A DNA stretch of 64,000 nt from Shigella phage phi25-307, in sequence record MG589383. One strand, 5' to 3'. The notes under the pieces were generated by a model, which was given only the letters and a program-made list of their open reading frames with translations, ran no database searches and was not told the DNA's origin. This document shows, in pieces, positions 27,019 to 36,606 of the stretch. Both the position numbers and the translations under genes were made by a program. Within the stretch, counting starts at the first letter, position 1. Every line of letters begins with the position of its first letter.

Positions 27019-30000
27019 ATGGCCGACATCAAACGTAAGTTCAGAGCCGAAGACGGTCTGGACGCCGGTGGCGACAAGATTGTTAACGTAGCATTAGCCG
27101 ACCGTACAGTAGGTACTGATGGCGTAAACGTTGACTTCCTGGTACAAGAAAACACCGTTCAAGTATATGATTCTACGCGTGGATATAACAAAGGATTTGT
27201 TGTTCTTTATGACAACCGTTTATATCAAGCAATAAATGATATCGTGTCTCCTTCCGGGGCATTTAACCTTTTACAATGGCGCACAGTTCGTACCGATGCA
27301 CAATGGATAACTGTCGCTTCTGGGACTTATCAACTTTCTTCAGGTGAATCGATTTCGGTTAACACTGCTGCCGGCAATGATATGGTTTTCACATTGCCAA
27401 GTACGCCGGTTGATGGTGATACTGTTGTTTTGGCTGATATCGGTGGAAGAACCGGGACAGTTAAAGTACAGATTAACGCGTCTGTGCAGAGTATTTTAAA
27501 CTTTAGAGGTGAACAAGTTCGTTCAGTTTTAATGACGCGACCACGTTCACAACTAGTGTTTGTGTTTAGTAATCGTTTGTGGCAGATGTATATCATTGAT
27601 TACGGTAAAGAATCAATCACTGTTACACCAGCGGCACCATATCAAGCACAAGCAAATGATTTTATCGTTCGTCGTTTTACTAGTGCAGCACCAATCAACA
27701 TTACACTTCCACGTAATGCTAACAATGGTGATATAATCAGCCTAGTCGATTTAGATAAATTAAACCCACTGTATCATACAATTGTTAAAACATTTGATGA
27801 TACAACGTCTATTGGTGAAGTCGGGACTCATATTGCCGAAGGCAGAAATGACTCTGACGCGTTTTTTGTTTTTGATGCTGCAAATAGTTTATGGCGTATA
27901 TGGGAAGGCGACCAGAAATCGCGTCTTCGTATTATCCGTGCGGATTCAAATATTCGTCCAAATGAAGAAGTTCTTATTTTTGGCACAAATAACGCTGCAA
28001 CCGGAACTATTAATCTTACGCTGCCTACCGGAATTTTGAGTGGTGACACTGTTAAAATTTCAATGAACTACATGCGTAAAGGCCAAACAGTAAAAATTAA
28101 AGCTGCCGAAGGTGATACAATTGCTTCTTCTGTTGCGTTGCTTCAGTTCCCTAAACGTTCTGAGTATCCACCTGATGCTCAATGGGTCTCTGTTACTGAA
28201 CTAGAATTCAATGGCACTACTTCATATGTTCCTGTATTAGAATTATCGTATATCGAAGACACCGTTGCTGGTACACGTTATTGGGTTGTGCAACAAAACG
28301 TCCCAACTGTAGAACGTGTTGATGCTGGAACTGATGCTACACGAGCTCGTTTAGGTGTTATTGCTCTTGCTACTCAAGCGCAAGCAAACGTTGATTTTGA
28401 AAATTCTCCGGCTAAAGAAGTTGCTATTACTCCTGAAACGTTGGCAAATCGTACAGCAACTGAAGCTCGACGTGGTATCGCTAAAATTGCTACAACAGCA
28501 CAAGTTAACCAGAATTCCACAGCATCATTTGTGGACGATACTATTGTTACGCCTAAAAAACTAAATGAGCGTACAGCAACTGAAACTCGTCGTGGTCTTG
28601 CTGAAATTGCTACTCAGGCTGAAACAGATGCTGGTCTTGATGACACAACGATTATTACACCTAAGAAATTGCAGGCACGTCAGGGTTCTGAAACACTATC
28701 TGGTATAGTTAAATATGTATCAACTACTTCTGCTACTCCTGCTGAAACTCGTGGGGCTGCAGGCACTAATGTTTATAATAAAACCGTAAATAATTTAACT
28801 ATTTCTCCTAAAGCCCTTGACCAATATAAAGCAACTTACGCCCAACAAGGTGCAGTAATTTTAGCTATTGATAGTGAAGTAATTGCTGGACAATCTCAGT
28901 CTGGATACTCTCATGCTGTAGTAACTCCTGAAACACTACATAAGAAAACTTCTACTGATGGACGTATTGGTTTAATTGAAATTGCTACGCAAGCAGAAAC
29001 TAATGCTGGGACTGATTATACACGTGCAGTAACGCCTAAGACGTTAAATGATAGGAGAGCGACGGAAGGATTATCCGGCATAGCCGAAATTGCTACGCAA
29101 GTTGAATTTGATACTGGAACTGATGATACTCGTATCTCGACTCCACTGAAAATTAAAACTCATTTTGATTCTTCTGACCGTACCAGTGTTAATTCTGATT
29201 CCGGACTTATTGAAGAAGGAACCTTGTGGAACCATTATACTCTTGATATTTCTAAAGCAAATGAAACACAACGTGGTACACTTCGCGTAGCGACCCAGGC
29301 AGAATCTAATGCAGGAACTTTAGATGATGTTCTTATTACTCCTAAAAAGCTTTTAGGGACTAAGTCCACTGAAACGTCTGAAGGTGTAATCAAGGTTGCA
29401 ACCCAGTCTGAAACTGTGACTGGAACGTCAGCGAACACTGCTGTATCTCCTAAGAATTTAAAATGGATTGTGCAGAGTGAACCAACATGGGCTGCTACTA
29501 CAGCAATTCGCGGATTCGTTAAAACTTCATCCGGTTCTATTACATTCGTTGGTAATGATACAGTCGGTTCTACACAAAACTTAGAGCTATACGAGAAAAA
29601 TAGCTATGCAGTATCACCGTATGAATTAAACCGTGTATTGGCAAATTACTTGCCATTAAAAGCAAAAGCTGCTGACGCAAATTTATTAGATGGCCTAGAT
29701 TCATCTCAGTTCATTCGTAGGGACATTGCACAGACGGTTAATGGTTCACTAACCTTAACCCAACAAACGAATCTGAGTGCCCCTCTTGTATCATCTAGTA
29801 CGGCTACGTTTGGTGGTTCGGTATCTGCTAATAGTACATTAACTATTTCTAATACAGGTGCTTCAACTCGCTTAATATTTGAAAAAGGTCCACAAACTGG
29901 AAACAACCCTGCTCAGGCGATGAATATCCGTGTATGGGGTAACCAATTCGCCGGCGGTTCTGATACATCTCGTGCTACGATATTTGAAGTTGGTGATGAA

Positions 30001-30894
30001 ACATCTAACCACTTTTATTCACAACGGGATAACCTTGGTAATATTACTTTCAGCATCAACGGTACAGTTCGGCCGATTAATGTTAATGCATCCGGAACAT
30101 TGAATGCTAATGGTGCGGCAACATTTGGACGTTCGGTGACAGCACAGGGTGAATTTATAACCTATAGTGCAAACGCATTCAGAGCAATTAGTGGTAATTA
30201 CGGATTCTTTATTCGTAATGATGCTGCTAATACCTATTTTATGCTTACTGCATCAGGTGATCAGACTGGCGGATTTAATGGATTACGTCCTTTAGCTATT
30301 AATAATGCATCCGGCCAAGTAACGATTGGTGAAGGCTTAATCATTGCCAAAGGTGCTACTATAAATTCAGGTGGTTTAACTGTTAACTCGAGAATTCGTT
30401 CTCATGGTTCTAAAACTGCTGATTTATACACTCGTGCTCCTACTGCTGATACAGTCGGATTCTGGTCAATCGATATTAACGATTCAGCCACTTATAACCA
30501 GTTCCCGGGTTATTTTAAAATGGTTGAAAAAACTAATGAAGTGACTGGACTTCCATACTTAGAACGTGGCGAAGAAGTTAAATCTCCTGGTACACTGACT
30601 CAGTTTGGTAACACACTTGATTCGCTTTACCAAGATTGGATTACTTATCCAACAACTCCAGAAGCACGTACAACCCGTTGGACACGTACATGGCAGAAAA
30701 CTAAAAATTCTTGGTCGAGTTTTGTTCAGGTATTTGATGGTGGAAACCCTCCTCAACCTTCTGATATTGGTGCTTTACCTTCTGATAATGCAACAATCGG
30801 AAACTTGACAATAAGAGATTTCTTAAGGATTGGTAACGTCCGCATTATTCCAGACCCTGTGAATAAATCTGTTAAATTCGAGTGGATTGAATAA
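27019..30894 (+). CDS. 34: Long tail fibre proximal subunit gp34, 1291 aa
   Basis: First gene of the plus-strand late operon; size close to T4 gp34 (about 1289 aa); repeated ...TPKKL/TPETL... motifs in the shaft region. Confidence 0.9.
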   Translation: MADIKRKFRAEDGLDAGGDKIVNVALADRTVGTDGVNVDFLVQENTVQVYDSTRGYNKGFVVLYDNRLYQAINDIVSPSGAFNLLQWRTVRTDAQWITVASGTYQLSSGESISVNTAAGNDMVFTLPSTPVDGDTVVLADIGGRTGTVKVQINASVQSILNFRGEQVRSVLMTRPRSQLVFVFSNRLWQMYIIDYGKESITVTPAAPYQAQANDFIVRRFTSAAPINITLPRNANNGDIISLVDLDKLNPLYHTIVKTFDDTTSIGEVGTHIAEGRNDSDAFFVFDAANSLWRIWEGDQKSRLRIIRADSNIRPNEEVLIFGTNNAATGTINLTLPTGILSGDTVKISMNYMRKGQTVKIKAAEGDTIASSVALLQFPKRSEYPPDAQWVSVTELEFNGTTSYVPVLELSYIEDTVAGTRYWVVQQNVPTVERVDAGTDATRARLGVIALATQAQANVDFENSPAKEVAITPETLANRTATEARRGIAKIATTAQVNQNSTASFVDDTIVTPKKLNERTATETRRGLAEIATQAETDAGLDDTTIITPKKLQARQGSETLSGIVKYVSTTSATPAETRGAAGTNVYNKTVNNLTISPKALDQYKATYAQQGAVILAIDSEVIAGQSQSGYSHAVVTPETLHKKTSTDGRIGLIEIATQAETNAGTDYTRAVTPKTLNDRRATEGLSGIAEIATQVEFDTGTDDTRISTPLKIKTHFDSSDRTSVNSDSGLIEEGTLWNHYTLDISKANETQRGTLRVATQAESNAGTLDDVLITPKKLLGTKSTETSEGVIKVATQSETVTGTSANTAVSPKNLKWIVQSEPTWAATTAIRGFVKTSSGSITFVGNDTVGSTQNLELYEKNSYAVSPYELNRVLANYLPLKAKAADANLLDGLDSSQFIRRDIAQTVNGSLTLTQQTNLSAPLVSSSTATFGGSVSANSTLTISNTGASTRLIFEKGPQTGNNPAQAMNIRVWGNQFAGGSDTSRATIFEVGDETSNHFYSQRDNLGNITFSINGTVRPINVNASGTLNANGAATFGRSVTAQGEFITYSANAFRAISGNYGFFIRNDAANTYFMLTASGDQTGGFNGLRPLAINNASGQVTIGEGLIIAKGATINSGGLTVNSRIRSHGSKTADLYTRAPTADTVGFWSIDINDSATYNQFPGYFKMVEKTNEVTGLPYLERGEEVKSPGTLTQFGNTLDSLYQDWITYPTTPEARTTRWTRTWQKTKNSWSSFVQVFDGGNPPQPSDIGALPSDNATIGNLTIRDFLRIGNVRIIPDPVNKSVKFEWIE

Positions 30895-30902
30895 GAGGTA
30901 TT

Positions 30903-32030
30903 ATGGAAAAATTTATGGCTAAGTTTGGACAAGGATACGTCCAAACGCCATTTTTATCGGAAAGCAATTCAGTACGATTTAAATTAAGCATAGCGGGCTC
31001 TTGCCCGCTATCAACATCTCCTGCTTATATTAAGTTCCAGGATAATCCACTTGGGTCCCAGGTTTTTTCTGTTGGATTAAACGTTCGTGTAATAAATCCT
31101 ACAACAGGTGCAGTAGTTGAATCTAAGTCATATAATTTCTCTACTGAAAACGACACAACGTCAAGTGCATTTGTTACTTTCATGGACACATATGCTTCAA
31201 ATTTTATATTTGCTCTTGTTACTAACGCTAAAACAAACTTTCCGCCTGAAGTTCTTACATGGTTTAATAAAGCCGGAAGTTCTGCTATTCCATTAGCTCA
31301 ACAAGTTTTAAATATAGTGGACATTTCTTATTCGGCATTTTATATTTCTGGTAAGAATGCTATAGCACTAGAACATATTAAGTATAGTAATAAGAAAACT
31401 TCAACCGACTATAGTACACCACTTGATGTTGTGTATGACACGATCGACGATATTGGTGCTACCGGCTTCCCTAGTCGTACGTATGAATCGACAGACACAT
31501 TTTTATCTGCCGTTGGAGGTACTAATAATGAAATTAAAAGGATGCCTACAACATCCCTTATTACACCTCTCGCTGGGTATAAATTGAAGCCTGGAGATTT
31601 CCTTTATATGAAATTCCAACTAATGGCTGATGCCGATTTGTTAGCACAAGGGACGACACGACTTTCTATTCGTTTCTTTAAATCTCCTTCTACTTCACCT
31701 ATTTCATTTAAGGATACAAACTTTGATGGGGCTGCAGGTGAATGGAAGATATATGAAGACTACATAGAAATTCCTGCTGGTGCTGACGGGTTCACGATTT
31801 ATTGTTATCGTACAGCTCCAGTCGGGCAAGGTGGATTAAGAAACGTTATATTCACTGAAGTATCATGTAATGGAAGCGTTTCAAAACCTGCTGAGTTTGG
31901 TGTAAATGGTATTCGTGTAAATTATGTTTCAGAATCTTTAAGTGCCCCAGACATAATGACATTACCTACTCAATCTTCAACTGATACTGGTAAGGTATTT
32001 GGTCAAGAATTTAAAGAAGCATCAGAATAA
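30903..32030 (+). CDS. 35: Long tail fibre hinge protein gp35, 375 aa
   Basis: Position and size match T4 gp35 (about 372 aa); SD GAGG before the ATG. Confidence 0.8.
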   Translation: MEKFMAKFGQGYVQTPFLSESNSVRFKLSIAGSCPLSTSPAYIKFQDNPLGSQVFSVGLNVRVINPTTGAVVESKSYNFSTENDTTSSAFVTFMDTYASNFIFALVTNAKTNFPPEVLTWFNKAGSSAIPLAQQVLNIVDISYSAFYISGKNAIALEHIKYSNKKTSTDYSTPLDVVYDTIDDIGATGFPSRTYESTDTFLSAVGGTNNEIKRMPTTSLITPLAGYKLKPGDFLYMKFQLMADADLLAQGTTRLSIRFFKSPSTSPISFKDTNFDGAAGEWKIYEDYIEIPAGADGFTIYCYRTAPVGQGGLRNVIFTEVSCNGSVSKPAEFGVNGIRVNYVSESLSAPDIMTLPTQSSTDTGKVFGQEFKEASE

Positions 32031-32092: not shown

Positions 32093-32758
32093 ATGGCCGA
32101 TTTAAAAGCTGGTAGTACAACTGGCGGCGCCGTTATATGGCATCAAGGTAATTTCCCTTTAATGCCAGCAGGTGATGACGTCCTGTATAAAACGTTTAAA
32201 CTCTATTCAGAATATAATAAACCACAAGCGGCTGATAACGATTTCGTTTCTAAAGCTAATGGTGGTACGTATGCCGCTCGAGTAACATTTAATAATGGTG
32301 TGCAAGTACCTTATGCCGTAAATAACACAAATCAAAGTGGTATTTATCCTGGCAATGGCGATGCTGCTACTTTTGATACAGCAAATATTGATATTGTTTC
32401 ATGGTATGGCATTGGTTTTAAATCATCACAAGGATCTGCAGGTAGAACTGTTGTTGTTAACACTCGTACTGGTGATATCAGCACTAAAGGTGGTATTTAT
32501 GCAACTGGTCCTGTCCGTTCTAACGCTACTGCTCCGGTTGCAGCAAATGATCTCACAAGAAAAGATTACGTTGATGGACGAATAAATATTGTTACAGATA
32601 ACGCAAATTCCCGTGTATTGCGTTCTGGCGATACCATGGCTGGTACTTTAACAGCACCAAACTTTTTCTCACAGAATCCGGCGTCTGAGGCTAATCATGT
32701 TCCTCGTTTCGACCAGATTGTAATTAAAGATTCTGTTCAAGATTTCGGCTATTATTAA
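32093..32758 (+). CDS. 36: Long tail fibre distal connector gp36, 221 aa
   Basis: Same length as T4 gp36; position between 35 and 37. Confidence 0.8.
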
Positions 32759-32766
32759 GAGGACTT

Positions 32767-35700
32767 ATGGCTACATTAAAACAGATACAATTTAAAAGAA
32801 GCAAAGTAGCAGGAGTTAATCCTACTGCAGCACAATTAGCCGAAGGCGAATTAGCGATAAACTTAAAAGATCGAACTCTTTTTACTAAAGATGACCTCGG
32901 TAATATTATTAGCCTAGGCTTTGCTAAGGGCGGGGATATTAACGGTAATGTAACTCAAAATGGAGATTATTTACAGAACGGTACATATAATCTCAATGGA
33001 AACCAGTTTGTTTATGCAGGAAAATATATTGAATTTTTACCTAAAACTGCAGGCAATGGTGCTTGGGCTAACCAACATTTGAATAAAGCCCCTATCTTTA
33101 CAGATTTAAGTTCAACTACTTCTGTTTCAGAATACCATCCGCTGATTAAACAACGCTATAAAGATGGAACTTTTTCTGCTGGTACATTAGTAAACGAAGG
33201 TAGTTTTAAATTCCATTATATTGATGAAACCAGGACTTCAAAATACTGGACTTTTAATCGAAACGGTAATTTTCAAGTTGATTCCGGAAGTTTATTAGTA
33301 TCTAATGGATATTTAGTTACTCAAAGTAATATTGAAACTAAAGCTGGTTCTTTAATTGGTCCTAAAGTTATTACCAAAAATATCAATGTGAGCACTAAAT
33401 CTTGGGACACTAATATTGATACTGCATATGATTTAGTTTCATTACCTACTTGGCAGTATACTCCAACCGAAACGGATTTGGATACTAATGGTATAAACTA
33501 CCTTCGTAAATTCCGCGGACATGTTTCTTCTGCTATTTTCCATGAAGTTGCTGATGCTCGTTCAGGTAAACCACAGAATATTTCGTATTGGACGGGACGT
33601 AATGCTGAAGTTTATCAATGGTCTTATACCACAGATGGGCGTATGTCTGTTGCTAATTCGATAGGTATAGGTCTTGCTGATGTTGGTGACCAAGGACGTT
33701 ATCCATTGGTTTCGTTTGGTAAAGGTATTGCAATTGGTGACAATGATACTGGTATTAAATGGGTTCGTGACGGGGTTATCGATTTAGTTGCGAATGGTAT
33801 TTCTGCCGGCACTATTCTTAATAACGGTATTAACAGTACTAAAAAATTGATGGTCGGTTATAGCCGCGATTCTGGTACTACTTGGGATTTCCCAAATAAC
33901 AACCAAGCAATGTTTACCGCACGCACCGATGTTGATGGTAATAATAACGGCGATGGTCAGACTCATATCGGTTATAACAGTAATTCTAAAATGTATCACT
34001 ATTTCCGTGGTACAGGTCGTATGGCTGTTGGTATGTCCCAAGGTCTCCTTGTTGAACCAGGAATTTTAGATATTAGCACTGGTTCAAATACATTAAGTTT
34101 GCGTGCTGACGGTACTGTTGCTTCTGTTCAAACGTTAAAGCTTAATAATGGATTATATTTTAATGGTGATGGAACTAATGCTTCTTTAGTTTTTAAAGCA
34201 GCTTCAGGTATTGATGGCACTAAGCAAATTATGTGGGAAGGTGGTAAGCGTGCTGGTCAAAATAAAAGTTATGTGACAGCTAAAGCTTGGGGTAATTCAT
34301 TTAACGCATCTGGCGATCGTAATCGTGAAACAGTTTTTGAAGTAGCTGACGGACAAGGTTATTACTTTTATGCGCAGCGTGTAGCTCCCGCTTCAGGATC
34401 TACTGTCGGACCAATTCAATTTAGAATTGCTGGAGCATTATTAACCGGTGGTGGTATTACATCATCCGGCTCGATTGTTACAGAATCAAGTTTAGTTGCT
34501 AATAACGGATTATCTGTAAATGGCCAGGCTAAATTTGGCGGAACAGCTGATGCATTAAGAATTTGGGATGCCGAATATGGCGCTATTTTCCGTCGTTCAG
34601 AAACAGCATTACATATTATCCCGACCAATAAAGATGCTGGTGAATCTGGTGGAATAAGCAATCTGCGCCCATTGAGCATCGCACTTAACAACGGTATGGT
34701 TCAAATGCGTCATTCTGTCACGTTAGGTGATGATGGTGCAGGCGGTAATATGATTACTGTGGACAACGATAACAAACTTGTTGTTGTTACTAGTCATAGT
34801 CGTATTTCTCCTAATTACCGTATGCAGGTAGGACAAGCAGCTTATATTGATGCTGAATGTACTGACACCGTTCGCCCGGCTGGTGCAGGGTCTTTTGCTT
34901 CACAAAATAATGAAAACGTTCGTGCTCCGTTCTATATGAATATTAATCGCACAGATACAAGTACTTACGTTCCTATTTTAAAACAACGTTATGTTCAAGG
35001 AAATAGCTGTTATTCTTTAGGTACTTTAATAAATGGCGGTAACTTCAGAGTTCATTATCATGAAGGTGGAGACGGAAGTTCAACAGGCGCAACTATAAAA
35101 GATTTAGGCTGGGAATTTACACGTTCTGGTGATTTTATATCTCCTAAGCGCATTTCTGCTGGGGGTTCAGTTTATTTAGGCACAGACGGTAACATTACTG
35201 GTGGTTCTGGTAATTTTGCCAACTTAAATAGTACAATTGAATCACTTAAAACTGATATTGTTTCAAGTTATCCTATTGGAGCTCCGATTCCTTGGCCTAC
35301 TGATACACCTCCTGAAGGTTACGCCATAATGGAAGGTCAAACATTTGATGCTGGCTTGTATCCTAAGTTAGCTGCTGTGTATCCTTCCGGCTCTCTGCCT
35401 GATATGCGTGGTCAAACTATCAAGGGTAAACCATCTGGGCGTGCTGTATTAAGTACAGAAGCAGACGGTGTTAAGTCACATAGCCATAGTGCAAGTGCAT
35501 CAAACACGGATTTGGGTACTAAAACCACTTCTAGTTTTGATTACGGTAGCAAAACGACTTCAAGCTTTGATTATGGTACTAAGACCAGTAATACCACTGG
35601 CAACCATAACCATACAGTGAGTGGTAATACTAGTTCCGCTGGTGCTCACCGACACGCGCGTTCAGGCCCTCAGATTCAATACGGCGTACACACTAGCATA

Positions 35701-36024
35701 TTCTATGATGGATACAATAGTGCTGGTCCAAATGGCAACGCTAAAATCACTGGAACCGTGAGTGGTGCTACTGCATCGTCGAATATGGCCAAAACTTCTT
35801 CAGACGGTGCCCACACCCATAGTTGGTCTGGTACTACTAGCACCACAGGTAACCATGCCCACACCGTAGGTATTGGCGCCCATACTCACACCGTAGGTAT
35901 TGGCGCTCACACCCATTCGGTTGCAATTGGTTCACATGGTCATACAATAACTGTAAATGCCACAGGAAATACAGAAAACACAGTTAAAAACGTTGCTTTT
36001 AACTATATCGTTCGTTTAGCATAA
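32767..36024 (+). CDS. 37: Long tail fibre distal subunit / receptor-binding protein gp37, 1085 aa
   Basis: Large Gly/Ser/Thr-rich fibre protein ending in a His-box tip (GNHNHT, GAHRHA, GAHTHS, GNHAHT, GAHTHT, GAHTHS, GSHGHT) and the T4-like C-terminus NYIVRLA. Confidence 0.9.
35515..35592 (+). repeat. In-frame tandem 30-nt coding repeat in the gp37 tip ([11 protein letters not shown])
   Basis: GGTACTAAAACCACTTCTAGTTTTGATTAC / GGTAGCAAAACGACTTCAAGCTTTGATTAT, then a partial third copy. Confidence 0.7.
35866..35919 (+). repeat. In-frame tandem 27-nt coding repeat in the gp37 tip ([10 protein letters not shown], His-box)
   Basis: GTAGGTATTGGCGCCCATACTCACACC / GTAGGTATTGGCGCTCACACCCATTCG. Confidence 0.7.
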
Positions 36025-36057
36025 GGAGAAGGGACTTCTGTCCCTTTTTATAATATG
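36023..36057 (+). promoter_or_regulatory. Gene 38 translation initiation region with SD and AUG separated by a hairpin (split ribosome-binding site)
   Basis: AAGGAG at 36023-36028, hairpin GGGAC-TTCT-GTCCC at 36031-36044 plus T-run, ATG at 36055; the hairpin would bring the SD close to the AUG and may also terminate some gene 37 transcripts. Confidence 0.5.
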
Positions 36058-36606
36058 AAACTCTATCACTATTATTTTGACACTAAAGAATTTTACAAAG
36101 AAGAAAATTATAAACCATTAAAAGGCGTAGGATTTCCAGCTCATTCGACACCAAAAAAACCTTTAGACCCTAAAGAAGGCTATGCTGTTGTATTTGATGA
36201 ACGCGAACAAGAATGGGTATATGTTGAAGACCATCGTGGAAAAACAGTATGGACTTATGATAAGCAAAAAATTGTTATTGACACTCCAGGTGCTCTTCAA
36301 AATGTTACTACAGAAGAACCTGGTGAATTTGACATTTGGACCGGCGACGGGTGGAAGGAAGATGAAGCATATAAACGCGTAGTTCAACGTGATAAGAAAA
36401 TTCATGAACTCTATAAATTATTCAGTGTTTTAAGTTCTCTTATTGACGCAGAGGTTGCTAATAGAGAAGAAAAACGAAAATTTAAAGAGCTCAAAAAATT
36501 CTTTGCCCTTTTAGAAAAACATGAACATCTTGGTGGTGAATTCCCTAAATTCCCTGACCTTGAAAACAAATCTATTGTCAAAGCGATTATAAATATCTTT
36601 AAGTAA
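36055..36606 (+). CDS. 38: Tail fibre assembly chaperone gp38 (T4 type, not the T2-type adhesin), 183 aa
   Basis: Same length as T4 gp38 and close match to remembered sequence (YHYYFDTKEFYKEENYKP.KG.G.PAHST.KKPL.PKEGYAVVFDE...FALLEKHEHLGGEFP). Confidence 0.9.
   Translation: MKLYHYYFDTKEFYKEENYKPLKGVGFPAHSTPKKPLDPKEGYAVVFDEREQEWVYVEDHRGKTVWTYDKQKIVIDTPGALQNVTTEEPGEFDIWTGDGWKEDEAYKRVVQRDKKIHELYKLFSVLSSLIDAEVANREEKRKFKELKKFFALLEKHEHLGGEFPKFPDLENKSIVKAIINIFK

Follow-up and report, generated by a model that had tools for sequence, protein, structure and literature searches.

In T4, the tip of the long tail fibre protein gp37 is served by two chaperones, gp38 and gp57A, and its needle binds iron in octahedral coordination, with six histidines per layer of HxH motifs (His boxes) supplied by three chains. 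In the T2/T6 type of distal fibre, a gp38 adhesin of approximately 260 aa, containing glycine-rich motifs, caps a cleaved gp37. The crystallised fragment of T4 gp37 (PDB 2XGF) comprises residues 785-1026, with a collar (D10) followed by the needle (D11). The needle itself occupies residues 882-1009, with contacts between G921 and F970 and between H929 and G964 (Islam 2019, PMC6957217), and the residues needed for LPS and OmpC binding, 933-953 (I933-Y953), lie between His boxes 3 and 4 (PMC6957217). According to the same paper (Islam 2019, PMC6957217), the T4 host-switch mutant G938V, which stems from a 1996 study, falls within this head region.

Here we compare these systems with the distal fibre locus of Shigella phage phi25-307 (sequence record MG589383), using a stretch of 64,000 nucleotides that we refer to as the window; genes 37 and 38 and the features of gene 37 described below are on the plus strand. 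The gp37 region of this phage encodes the ordinary tip with which a T4-type long tail fibre binds its receptor, a known kind of structure. Within such a T4-type tip, it is probable that the two tandem repeats of gp37 are the matched halves of one extra layer of the needle shaft, and that receptor specificity resides in the head.

A T4-type fibre tip and its chaperone gene

Gene 37 (32767..36024), recognised as an open reading frame and from the annotation of its relatives, encodes the long tail fibre distal subunit of 1085 aa. Its 5' neighbour is gp36 (32093..32758), and the gene order 34-35-36-37-38-t is that of T4, with the holin gene t following gp38. Identity to T4 gp37 is 51% across the full length, and the N-terminal half of the protein is mosaic. 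The final 274 aa are collinear end to end with the T4 tip structure 2XGF (phmmer E=3.1e-86, with query positions 1-274 paired with chain positions 6-242), and a BLASTP alignment to T4 gp37 was also made. Relative to T4, the tip departs in length at four points only: a second FDY unit adds 10 aa, the head gains 15 and 3 aa, and a second VGIGAHTHT unit adds 9 aa.

T4 alignment and Pfam together place a collar domain at aa 833-903 (35263..35475), equivalent to T4 D10 (residues 811-881); the PF07484 Collar match itself covers aa 838-885 (E=8e-11, scoring 42.1 bits where the cut-off is 24) and lies directly before the needle. At the other end of the tip, T4 alignment identifies a C-terminal strand leading back to the collar at aa 1069-1085 (35971..36021; T4 1010-1026), which is almost invariant among 29 aligned homologues. 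The first-pass annotation of this DNA had likened the region to the T4 tip and proposed a comparison with residues 785-1026, and both the collinearity with 2XGF and the upstream Collar domain bear out this assignment to a T4-type tip.

Gene 38 (36055..36606) encodes a protein of 183 aa that aligns with T4 gp38 without gaps at 67% identity, and that matches PHROG 105 ('tail fiber assembly', E=6.3e-50) and Pfam Caudo_TAP. Its family matches in Pfam and PHROG are to tail fibre assembly only, and it does not have the approximately 260-aa length of a T2-type adhesin. The earlier identification of gp38 as a T4-type tail fibre assembly chaperone, rather than a T2-type adhesin, therefore holds on length, T4 identity and PHROG family alike. 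In this role gp38 would fold the gp37 tip without becoming a component of the fibre. Since gp38 is a chaperone and not an adhesin, T4 biology would place the adhesin function in gp37 itself (Trojet 2011, PMC3157838; Islam 2019, PMC6957217), and by the same analogy the first-pass proposal that host range is set by the gp37 tip is probably correct. A consensus scan for a terminator between genes 37 and 38 found none. By eye, a hairpin (GGGAC-TTCT-GTCCC) followed by T5 can be seen between the two genes at approximately 36031-36049.

His boxes and tandem repeats of the needle

If the fold follows that of T4, three gp37 chains would run out along the fibre axis (the ascending strands), form the head at the far end and return (the descending strands), so that three ascending and three descending strands would make up a six-stranded needle after the collar. 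Metal ions would tie this needle together, each held by six histidines, with one HxH motif contributed by each of the three chains.

The gp37 of phi25-307 contains eight HxH motifs against seven in T4, three of them ascending and five descending (three and four, respectively, in T4). His box 1, KSHSH(S), is located at the base of the needle (35479..35487; H905/H907, aligned with T4 H883/H885), and the ascending series continues with box 2, GNHNH (35605..35613; H947/H949), and ends with box 3, GAHRH (35647..35655; H961/H963, aligned with T4 H929/H931). Box 4, GAHTH (35812..35820; H1016/H1018), is the first on the descending strand and precedes box 5, GNHAH (35854..35862; H1030/H1032); like box 2, both were placed by motif scan and T4 alignment. 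Boxes 6 and 7 are carried by the descending tandem repeat, and box 8 (H1057, H1059) by a diverged third 27-nt unit, VAIGSHGHT (35920..35946). The first-pass annotation had counted seven His boxes in the last ~170 aa. Seven G-x-H-x-H motifs are indeed present (first His at aa 947, 961, 1016, 1030, 1039, 1048 and 1057), but the HxH total is eight, the KSHSH of box 1, 13-21 nt upstream of that annotation's start at 35500, having been overlooked.

Histidine is concentrated in this part of the protein: 17 residues fall in the last 185 aa, whereas the whole of the first 900 aa has 12. The histidines of boxes 1, 2, 6, 7 and 8 are invariant among the 29 homologues; those of boxes 3-5 do not appear among the invariant positions of this set because the number of modules and the length of the head vary there. 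Eight HxH motifs lead to a prediction of eight metal sites, one more than in T4. If T4 chemistry holds, eight sites per fibre would correspond to 24 His boxes per trimer and, with six fibres, to 48 metal ions per virion.

Two in-frame tandem repeats had also been described, at 2.3 and 2 copies. Both are real, and the figures given are close enough to those of Tandem Repeats Finder, which reports 1.9 copies of period 30 at 35521-35578 (85% matches) and 2.3 copies of period 27 at 35853-35915 (86% matches). The ascending repeat consists of two 30-nt FDY units (35515..35574, aa 917-936) and is followed by the degenerate start of a third (GTKT...), while the descending repeat consists of two 27-nt units, VGIGAHTHT/VGIGAHTHS (35866..35919, aa 1034-1051); T4 has one unit of each. 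Repeat units are 78-80% identical. The 30-nt units, at 80% DNA identity, have a longest common exact run of 8 nt, and a 20-nt exact direct repeat, CACACCGTAGGTATTGGCGC, occurs at 35860 and again 27 nt further on, at 35887. Repeat copies are 0.82 identical within one genome and 0.81-0.82 identical between genomes, with orthologous copies at 0.85-0.89. Orthologous copies are thus closer to one another than copies within a genome, and therefore there is no general homogenisation of the repeats. In phage VR25 the second 30-nt unit is an exact copy of the first, which points to gene conversion between the two.

Coupled copy numbers and the variable head

The two T4 contacts cited above imply that facing residues in the needle sum to approximately 1892, which in turn places the T4 FDY unit (896-905) opposite GAHTHT (984-992), with the numbering checked by alignment. 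Carried over to phi25-307, this geometry would put both repeats at the same axial level in the needle shaft, where a His-free 10-aa ascending unit would face a 9-aa descending His-box unit, VGIGAHxHT, to form the extra layer. Because the units differ in length, 10 aa ascending against 9 aa descending, the pairing cannot be residue for residue. An AlphaFold2 monomer model of the C-terminal 274 aa, built on a 29-sequence alignment, was poor (mean pLDDT 53, pTM 0.22), and Foldseek run on it ranked 2xgf_A first at a TM score of 0.24-0.29, a match driven by sequence. It is the T4 contacts quoted in the literature, together with covariation of copy number, that lead us to infer that the repeats lie opposite each other.

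This covariation was examined in 254 unique complete tails, which were parsed by motif spacing with the collar motif as the anchor point. In 250 of the 254, a tail with n terminal 9-aa His-box steps has a spacing of 12+10n aa between His boxes 1 and 2. Spacings of 22 aa accompany one step (10 sequences), 31-32 aa two steps (74 sequences, the T4 form), 42 aa three steps (138 sequences, the form found both in the gp37 of phi25-307 and in lambda Stf), 52 aa four steps (26 sequences) and 62 aa five steps (2 sequences). Permutation of the copy numbers over 10,000 runs gave at most 128 fits against the 250 observed, a figure swollen by shared ancestry, as a needle may be passed down or swapped whole. 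Because the needle moves in this way, the five balanced states strictly require only about four independent coupled changes. Units of 14 aa carrying a His box are also equal in number on both strands (0/0, 1/1 or 2/2), in 253 of the 254 tails.

The exceptions to the spacing rule are individual sequences. One (L174, identical to L109, from Ca. Erwinia dacicola) has a decayed His box, and two unbalanced singletons combine 32 aa with three steps (L297) and 42 aa with one step (L264). The remaining unbalanced tail (L002, on the same contig as L252) combines 42 aa with two steps and is missing exactly one 27-nt unit. It belongs to a T4-like contig from IMG/VR in which the gp37-gp38-holin locus is otherwise intact, and therefore an imbalance in copy number is not necessarily lethal. 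Given the coupling of copy numbers across the family, however, altering one repeat alone would unbalance the hairpin.

The 52-aa segment that separates His box 3 from His box 4 (aa 964-1015, 35656..35811) forms the head, the predicted receptor-binding part, and aligns with T4 932-965. The T4 head is 18 aa shorter and the two sequences are largely dissimilar, and as a result the OmpC/LPS specificity of T4 cannot be assumed for phi25-307. Variation among relatives is concentrated here. Ten fetched alleles, which represent two genera and E. coli, Yersinia and Serratia hosts, agree in a tip length of 825 nt and in their copy numbers, with a DNA divergence of 11-13%, and about 55 of the 60 megablast matches listed span the length of the query. 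DNA diversity among the ten is equal in head and shaft, at 0.13. At the amino-acid level, on the other hand, the head has a diversity of 0.21, with 24 of its 52 positions variable, against 0.05 for the descending shaft, where 5 of 44 positions vary, and 0.09 for the ascending shaft, and on these sequence data the shaft is under strong purifying selection. Head variation takes the form of substitutions, small indels and whole-head swaps, with the His-box flanks remaining constant; in P0002, P0005 and P0006 the head is swapped and the shaft unchanged, and P0001 has 93% protein identity to the tip in the window. An apparent expansion of the tip by 117 nt in O157 typing phage 13 proved to be a run of N in the record.

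Competing readings and relation to known needles

The first-pass annotation had regarded the repeats as hotspots of slippage-driven host-range variation; on this reading, changes in copy number by slippage, or equally by recombination, would generate host-range variants. There are several observations that would fit such a process: the 27-nt units contain a 20-nt exact direct repeat, a natural contig is short by exactly one of these units with gp37, gp38 and holin all intact, the identical 30-nt units of VR25 point to gene conversion, and copy number in the wider family ranges from 1 to 5 units. Furthermore, going by the title of the 1996 work of Tetart et al., duplications in the adhesin reportedly expand the host range of T4. 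Nevertheless, none of the ten fetched alleles shows a change in copy number and about 55 of the 60 matches listed are of the same length, the copy numbers of ascending and descending units go together in 250 of 254 tails with unbalanced forms occurring as singletons, the 30-nt units in the window match over no more than 8 bases in a row, and copies within a genome are no more alike than copies between genomes. Moreover, the repeats lie in the shaft, whereas the T4 host-range residues, including G938V, lie in the head. We consider it distinctly improbable that the repeats serve as a source of host-range variants, and this part of the first-pass annotation is not upheld.

The coupling might also reflect nothing but the common descent of whole needle modules, the repeats being neutral relics of old duplications. 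The copies are old, with 20% DNA divergence between them, lambda Stf has the same architecture at 62% protein identity, and needles have been moved as blocks by recombination. Neutral inheritance is nonetheless difficult to reconcile with five well-populated copy-number states that are all balanced, with 14-aa units that are balanced independently, with the restriction of unbalanced combinations to singletons and with the strength of purifying selection on the shaft, and we judge it very unlikely to account for the repeats. That the HxH cluster and the repeats arose by chance in a His/Gly/Thr-rich sequence is barely conceivable. A low-complexity composition would favour this and nothing further does, whereas shuffling the last 185 aa 100,000 times gave eight HxH motifs just once, the motifs pair one to one with the solved T4 structure, and five of the eight boxes have invariant histidines, as described above.

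If the repeats are indeed matched halves of an extra shaft layer, they would determine how long the shaft is and how many metal sites it has, and not receptor specificity, which would instead come from the head. Host-range engineering or prediction would then be directed at aa 964-1015 (nt 35656-35811), with the repeats left alone. The pairing rule additionally provides a simple, checkable design constraint, namely that needle length should be altered on both strands jointly. For phi25-307 itself the importance of these findings is small, as the tip is a standard one, with dozens of sequenced phage alleles at a distance of a few percent.

A more general proposal, which we put forward as speculation and think unlikely, is that in T4 gp37, lambda Stf and related prophage fibres the HxH needle is a ladder that evolves by whole matched rungs and might so tune the reach of the head. 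On the ascending strand each rung would consist of a 10-aa FDY unit or a 14-aa His unit, matched on the descending strand by a His unit of 9 or 14 aa. Were this the case, natural needles would have from 4 to 10 metal sites, the repeats might alter host range through reach across host surface layers and not through specificity, and rare unbalanced forms such as L002 would represent short-lived slippage products.

Among the described systems, the T4 tip has the collar, the two strands of His boxes and the conserved C-terminus in common with the gp37 of phi25-307, which differs in having one more FDY unit and one more 9-aa His-box unit. Tevenvirinae gp37 tip alleles are 82-94% identical to the window at the DNA level, and those of JS09, HX01, phiD1, VIPECOMC06, phiC600P9, APCEc01, VR25 and PhiZZ30 have a tip of 825 nt with the same repeats and eight His boxes. 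Found only in the window are R962 in His box 3, where all relatives examined have Q, and two residues with which the head begins, Y972 and H975, where relatives have G and P. Lambda Stf presents the same needle, with His boxes 1 and 2 spaced 42 aa apart, a 14-aa unit on either strand, three 9-aa steps and eight HxH motifs. Its tip shows the 62% protein identity to gp37 mentioned above, although the head sequence differs, and its chaperone Tfa can be grouped broadly with the gp38 described here (Pfam Caudo_TAP, 'lambda gpK'). However, Stf is found on a siphovirus side fibre rather than on a T-even long tail fibre. Conversely, the T2/T6-type fibre tip is encoded at the same locus in related phages, whereas in phi25-307 gp38 is of the chaperone type and gp37 bears its own needle.

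The gp37 tip and its locus

The 1085-aa ORF called as gp37 (32767-36024, plus strand) lies downstream of gp34 (27019-30894), the hinge protein gp35 (30903-32030) and the adjoining gp36 (Pfam Phage_T4_gp36), and is followed by the 183-aa ORF of gp38 (36055-36606) and by holin t (Pfam Phage_holin_T), the gene order being that of T4, 34-35-36-37-38-t-asiA. The 20 kb around the locus are 95-97% identical to sequenced Tevenvirinae such as a20, p000v, F2 and the Mosigvirus vB_VIPECOMC06, and the best identity of the gp37-gp38 segment is ~93-94% (to HX01, PNJ-6 and JQD51). Overall, gp37 is 51% identical to its T4 counterpart, its N-terminal half being mosaic and its C-terminal third well conserved. 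Two observations concern the neighboring sequence. gp35 exceeds the Pfam gathering score for an ILEI domain (PF15711; 30.0 bits vs 27; aa 58-129), an unexpected family name on a phage fibre protein. Between the gp37 stop and the gp38 start, a hairpin (GGGAC-TTCT-GTCCC) followed by TTTTT occupies 36031-36049; a terminator is annotated at this site in some relatives, and a consensus terminator scan reported none there.

The T4 gp37 tip structure (2XGF) aligns end to end with the last 274 aa of gp37 (E=3.1e-86), and this collinearity upholds the T4-type tip identification of the first-pass annotation. All the sequence-level defining features of the T4 gp37/lambda Stf (side tail fibre) tip family are present, and on this basis the tip is a member of that family, predicted to share its trimer fold and metal binding. 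An AlphaFold2 monomer model of the tip was of unusable quality. Seven GxHxH motifs were found as annotated (first His at aa 947, 961, 1016, 1030, 1039, 1048 and 1057), but the count of seven His boxes (HxH) rises to eight with KSHSH (H905/H907, nt 35479-35487), which lies just upstream of the region originally noted, at 35500-36024, and is aligned to H883/H885, His box 1 of the T4 needle. T4 has seven. Of the histidines of gp37, 17 fall in the last 185 aa and 12 in the first 900, and eight HxH were reached in 1 of 100,000 shuffles of those 185 aa; the clustering is therefore not due to chance. A ninth HxH, in RVHYHEG (35047-35067, aa 761-767), precedes the needle by ~140 aa and is conserved in T4, as RVHYHGG (T4 740-746).

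The downstream gp38 is 67% identical to T4 gp38 over 183 ungapped residues and matches PHROG 105 'tail fiber assembly' (E=6e-50) and Pfam Caudo_TAP. These matches bear out its annotation as a T4-type chaperone; it is not an adhesin of the T2/T6 type. Chaperone-type gp38 supports the view, which follows the biology of T4 (summarised in Trojet et al. 2011, PMC3157838), that the adhesin would be carried by gp37 itself.

Repeats in the needle shaft and their proposed pairing

Both in-frame tandem repeats reported at first pass are real: Tandem Repeats Finder returned 35521-35578 (period 30, 1.9 copies) and 35853-35915 (period 27, 2.3 copies). In codon register, on the plus strand, these are two 10-aa FDY units on the ascending strand of the shaft (35515-35574) and two 9-aa VGIGAHTHT units on the descending strand (35866-35919), the latter followed by a diverged VAIGSHGHT. 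The window tip differs from that of T4 in length in exactly three places: the second FDY unit between His boxes 1 and 2 (+10 aa), insertions of +15 and +3 aa between boxes 3 and 4, and the second VGIGAHTHT unit (+9 aa). In T4 gp37 the collar comprises residues 811-881 and 1010-1026 and the needle 882-1009, with inter-strand contacts G921-F970 and H929-G964 (Islam et al. 2019, PMC6957217), so that the numbers of facing needle residues sum to ~1892. With T4 numbering verified, this sum sets the T4 FDY unit (896-905) opposite GAHTHT (984-992), from which we infer, using published contacts rather than coordinates, that the two repeats of the window lie on opposite hairpin strands at the same height. 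Jointly, they would add one shaft layer, with one additional His box.

If the two repeats form a single layer between them, a change in the copy number of one should go with a change in the other. Complete tips were drawn from 120 database proteins, three IMG/VR scans, one GTDB genome scan, T4 and ten phage records, giving 254 unique sequences after removal of duplicates, with 4 to 10 HxH per chain. His boxes 1 and 2 are spaced by 22, 32, 42, 52 or 62 aa, values which pair with 1, 2, 3, 4 and 5 terminal 9-aa His-box steps (n=10, 74, 138, 26 and 2, respectively; the window is in the commonest class, 42 aa and 3 steps). This pairing holds in 250 of the 254 tips, against a maximum of 128 in 10,000 permutations, and the 14-aa-spaced His units are equal on the two strands (0/0, 1/1 or 2/2) in 253. 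The exceptions are each singletons: L002 (= contig L252; 42 aa, 2 steps), L297 (32 aa, 3 steps), L264 (42 aa, 1 step), L174 (identical in sequence to L109, Ca. Erwinia dacicola), where a 2-aa deletion decayed one His box, and L302, which lost the second ascending His box. Needles are inherited or exchanged as blocks, making the 254 sequences non-independent and the strictly required coupled changes only about four. All the well-populated states are nonetheless balanced, and each unbalanced state occurs once only, which argues that balance is under selection. The pairing rule was not found stated in the literature searched, outside which the T4 tip structure paper lies; we regard it as a tidy constraint and claim no novelty.

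The same tip is also encoded by low-coverage GTDB contigs of ~48.4-48.5 kb (L082-L093, L115, L128) from unrelated bacteria, for example Pseudomonas, Shewanella, Neobacillus, Paenibacillus, Chromatium and Leeuwenhoekiella. One of these, L086 (NZ_JAFGYY010000031.1, 48,442 nt), matches phage lambda J02459 19703-23470 at 100% identity, and the contigs are, judged by this match, lambda DNA contamination.

Copy-number stability and the likely seat of host range

The first-pass annotation proposed that the repeats are slippage hotspots driving host-range variation. In its favor, loss of a single unit does happen: the T4-like contig L002 (IMGVR_UViG_3300030021_000020), with gp37, gp38 and holin intact, is missing exactly one 27-nt unit. 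In its needle, two FDY units on the ascending strand stand against only two 9-aa steps, one VGIGAHTHT unit being absent; its head is a different one, and it is the sole unbalanced variant in the window's own allele group. However, ten alleles from two genera, with E. coli, Yersinia and Serratia as hosts (JS09, phiD1, APCEc01, O157 typing phage 6, Ge15, PhiZZ30, VIPECOMC06, phiC600P9, VR25 and the window), all span 825 nt with identical copy numbers despite DNA differences of 11-13%, and ~55 of 60 among the megablast matches listed have the same span as the query. Identity between units is 80% for the 30-nt repeat, whose longest run of identical bases is 8, and 78% for the 27-nt repeat, whose units nevertheless share an exact 20-nt direct repeat (35860 and 35887). 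Two copies from one genome resemble each other (0.82) no more than two from different genomes (0.81-0.82), whereas orthologous copies are closer (0.85-0.89), which indicates no general homogenisation. Loss of one unit is rare and without spread, and the hotspot proposal is not supported.

In VR25 (L001 1501-2325), in the region equivalent to 35515-35574, the 30-nt units are identical, giving a 38-nt exact repeat, while in its close relative Ge15 they have diverged; this looks like gene conversion, with copy number unchanged. An apparent 117-nt tip expansion in the similarity match to O157 typing phage 13 (L081, KP869111.1) was mimicked by an N run in the gp37 tip of that record.

Host range is more likely set in the head, between His boxes 3 and 4. 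Across the ten alleles the tip regions are alike in DNA diversity (0.11-0.13) but not in amino-acid diversity: this reaches 0.21 in the head, where 24 of 52 positions vary, as against 0.05 in the descending shaft, where 5 of 44 do, and 0.09 in the ascending shaft. Unrelated heads sit on an unchanged shaft in the database relatives P0002, P0005 and P0006. In T4, binding of LPS/OmpC needs I933-Y953, within the head, where the same paper also places G938V, a mutant whose host is switched to Yersinia pseudotuberculosis (Islam et al. 2019, PMC6957217). The otherwise window-type tip of Escherichia phage vB_Eco_F31 (L170, OP870147.1 159194-160026) has five residues duplicated in tandem (QGGVPQGGVP) where the head begins; this is the only indel among the fetched alleles, and it is not in the shaft repeats. 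Particular to the window are R962 (35650-35652), which makes His box 3 read GAHRHA (the residue is Q in all ten relatives and in P0001-P0006), and Y972 (35680-35682) and H975 (35689-35691), with which its head begins QYGVHTS vs QGG(V/I)PTS in relatives.

The head of the window (aa 964-1015) exceeds that of T4 by 18 aa and is for the most part dissimilar to it, so T4 is no guide to its receptor. The shaft, with both repeats and eight His boxes, is an architecture common among sequenced phages and in lambda: it is the tip of T4, the model phage, that is the shorter variant, one rung below the window, and lambda Stf belongs to the same, commonest copy-number class.
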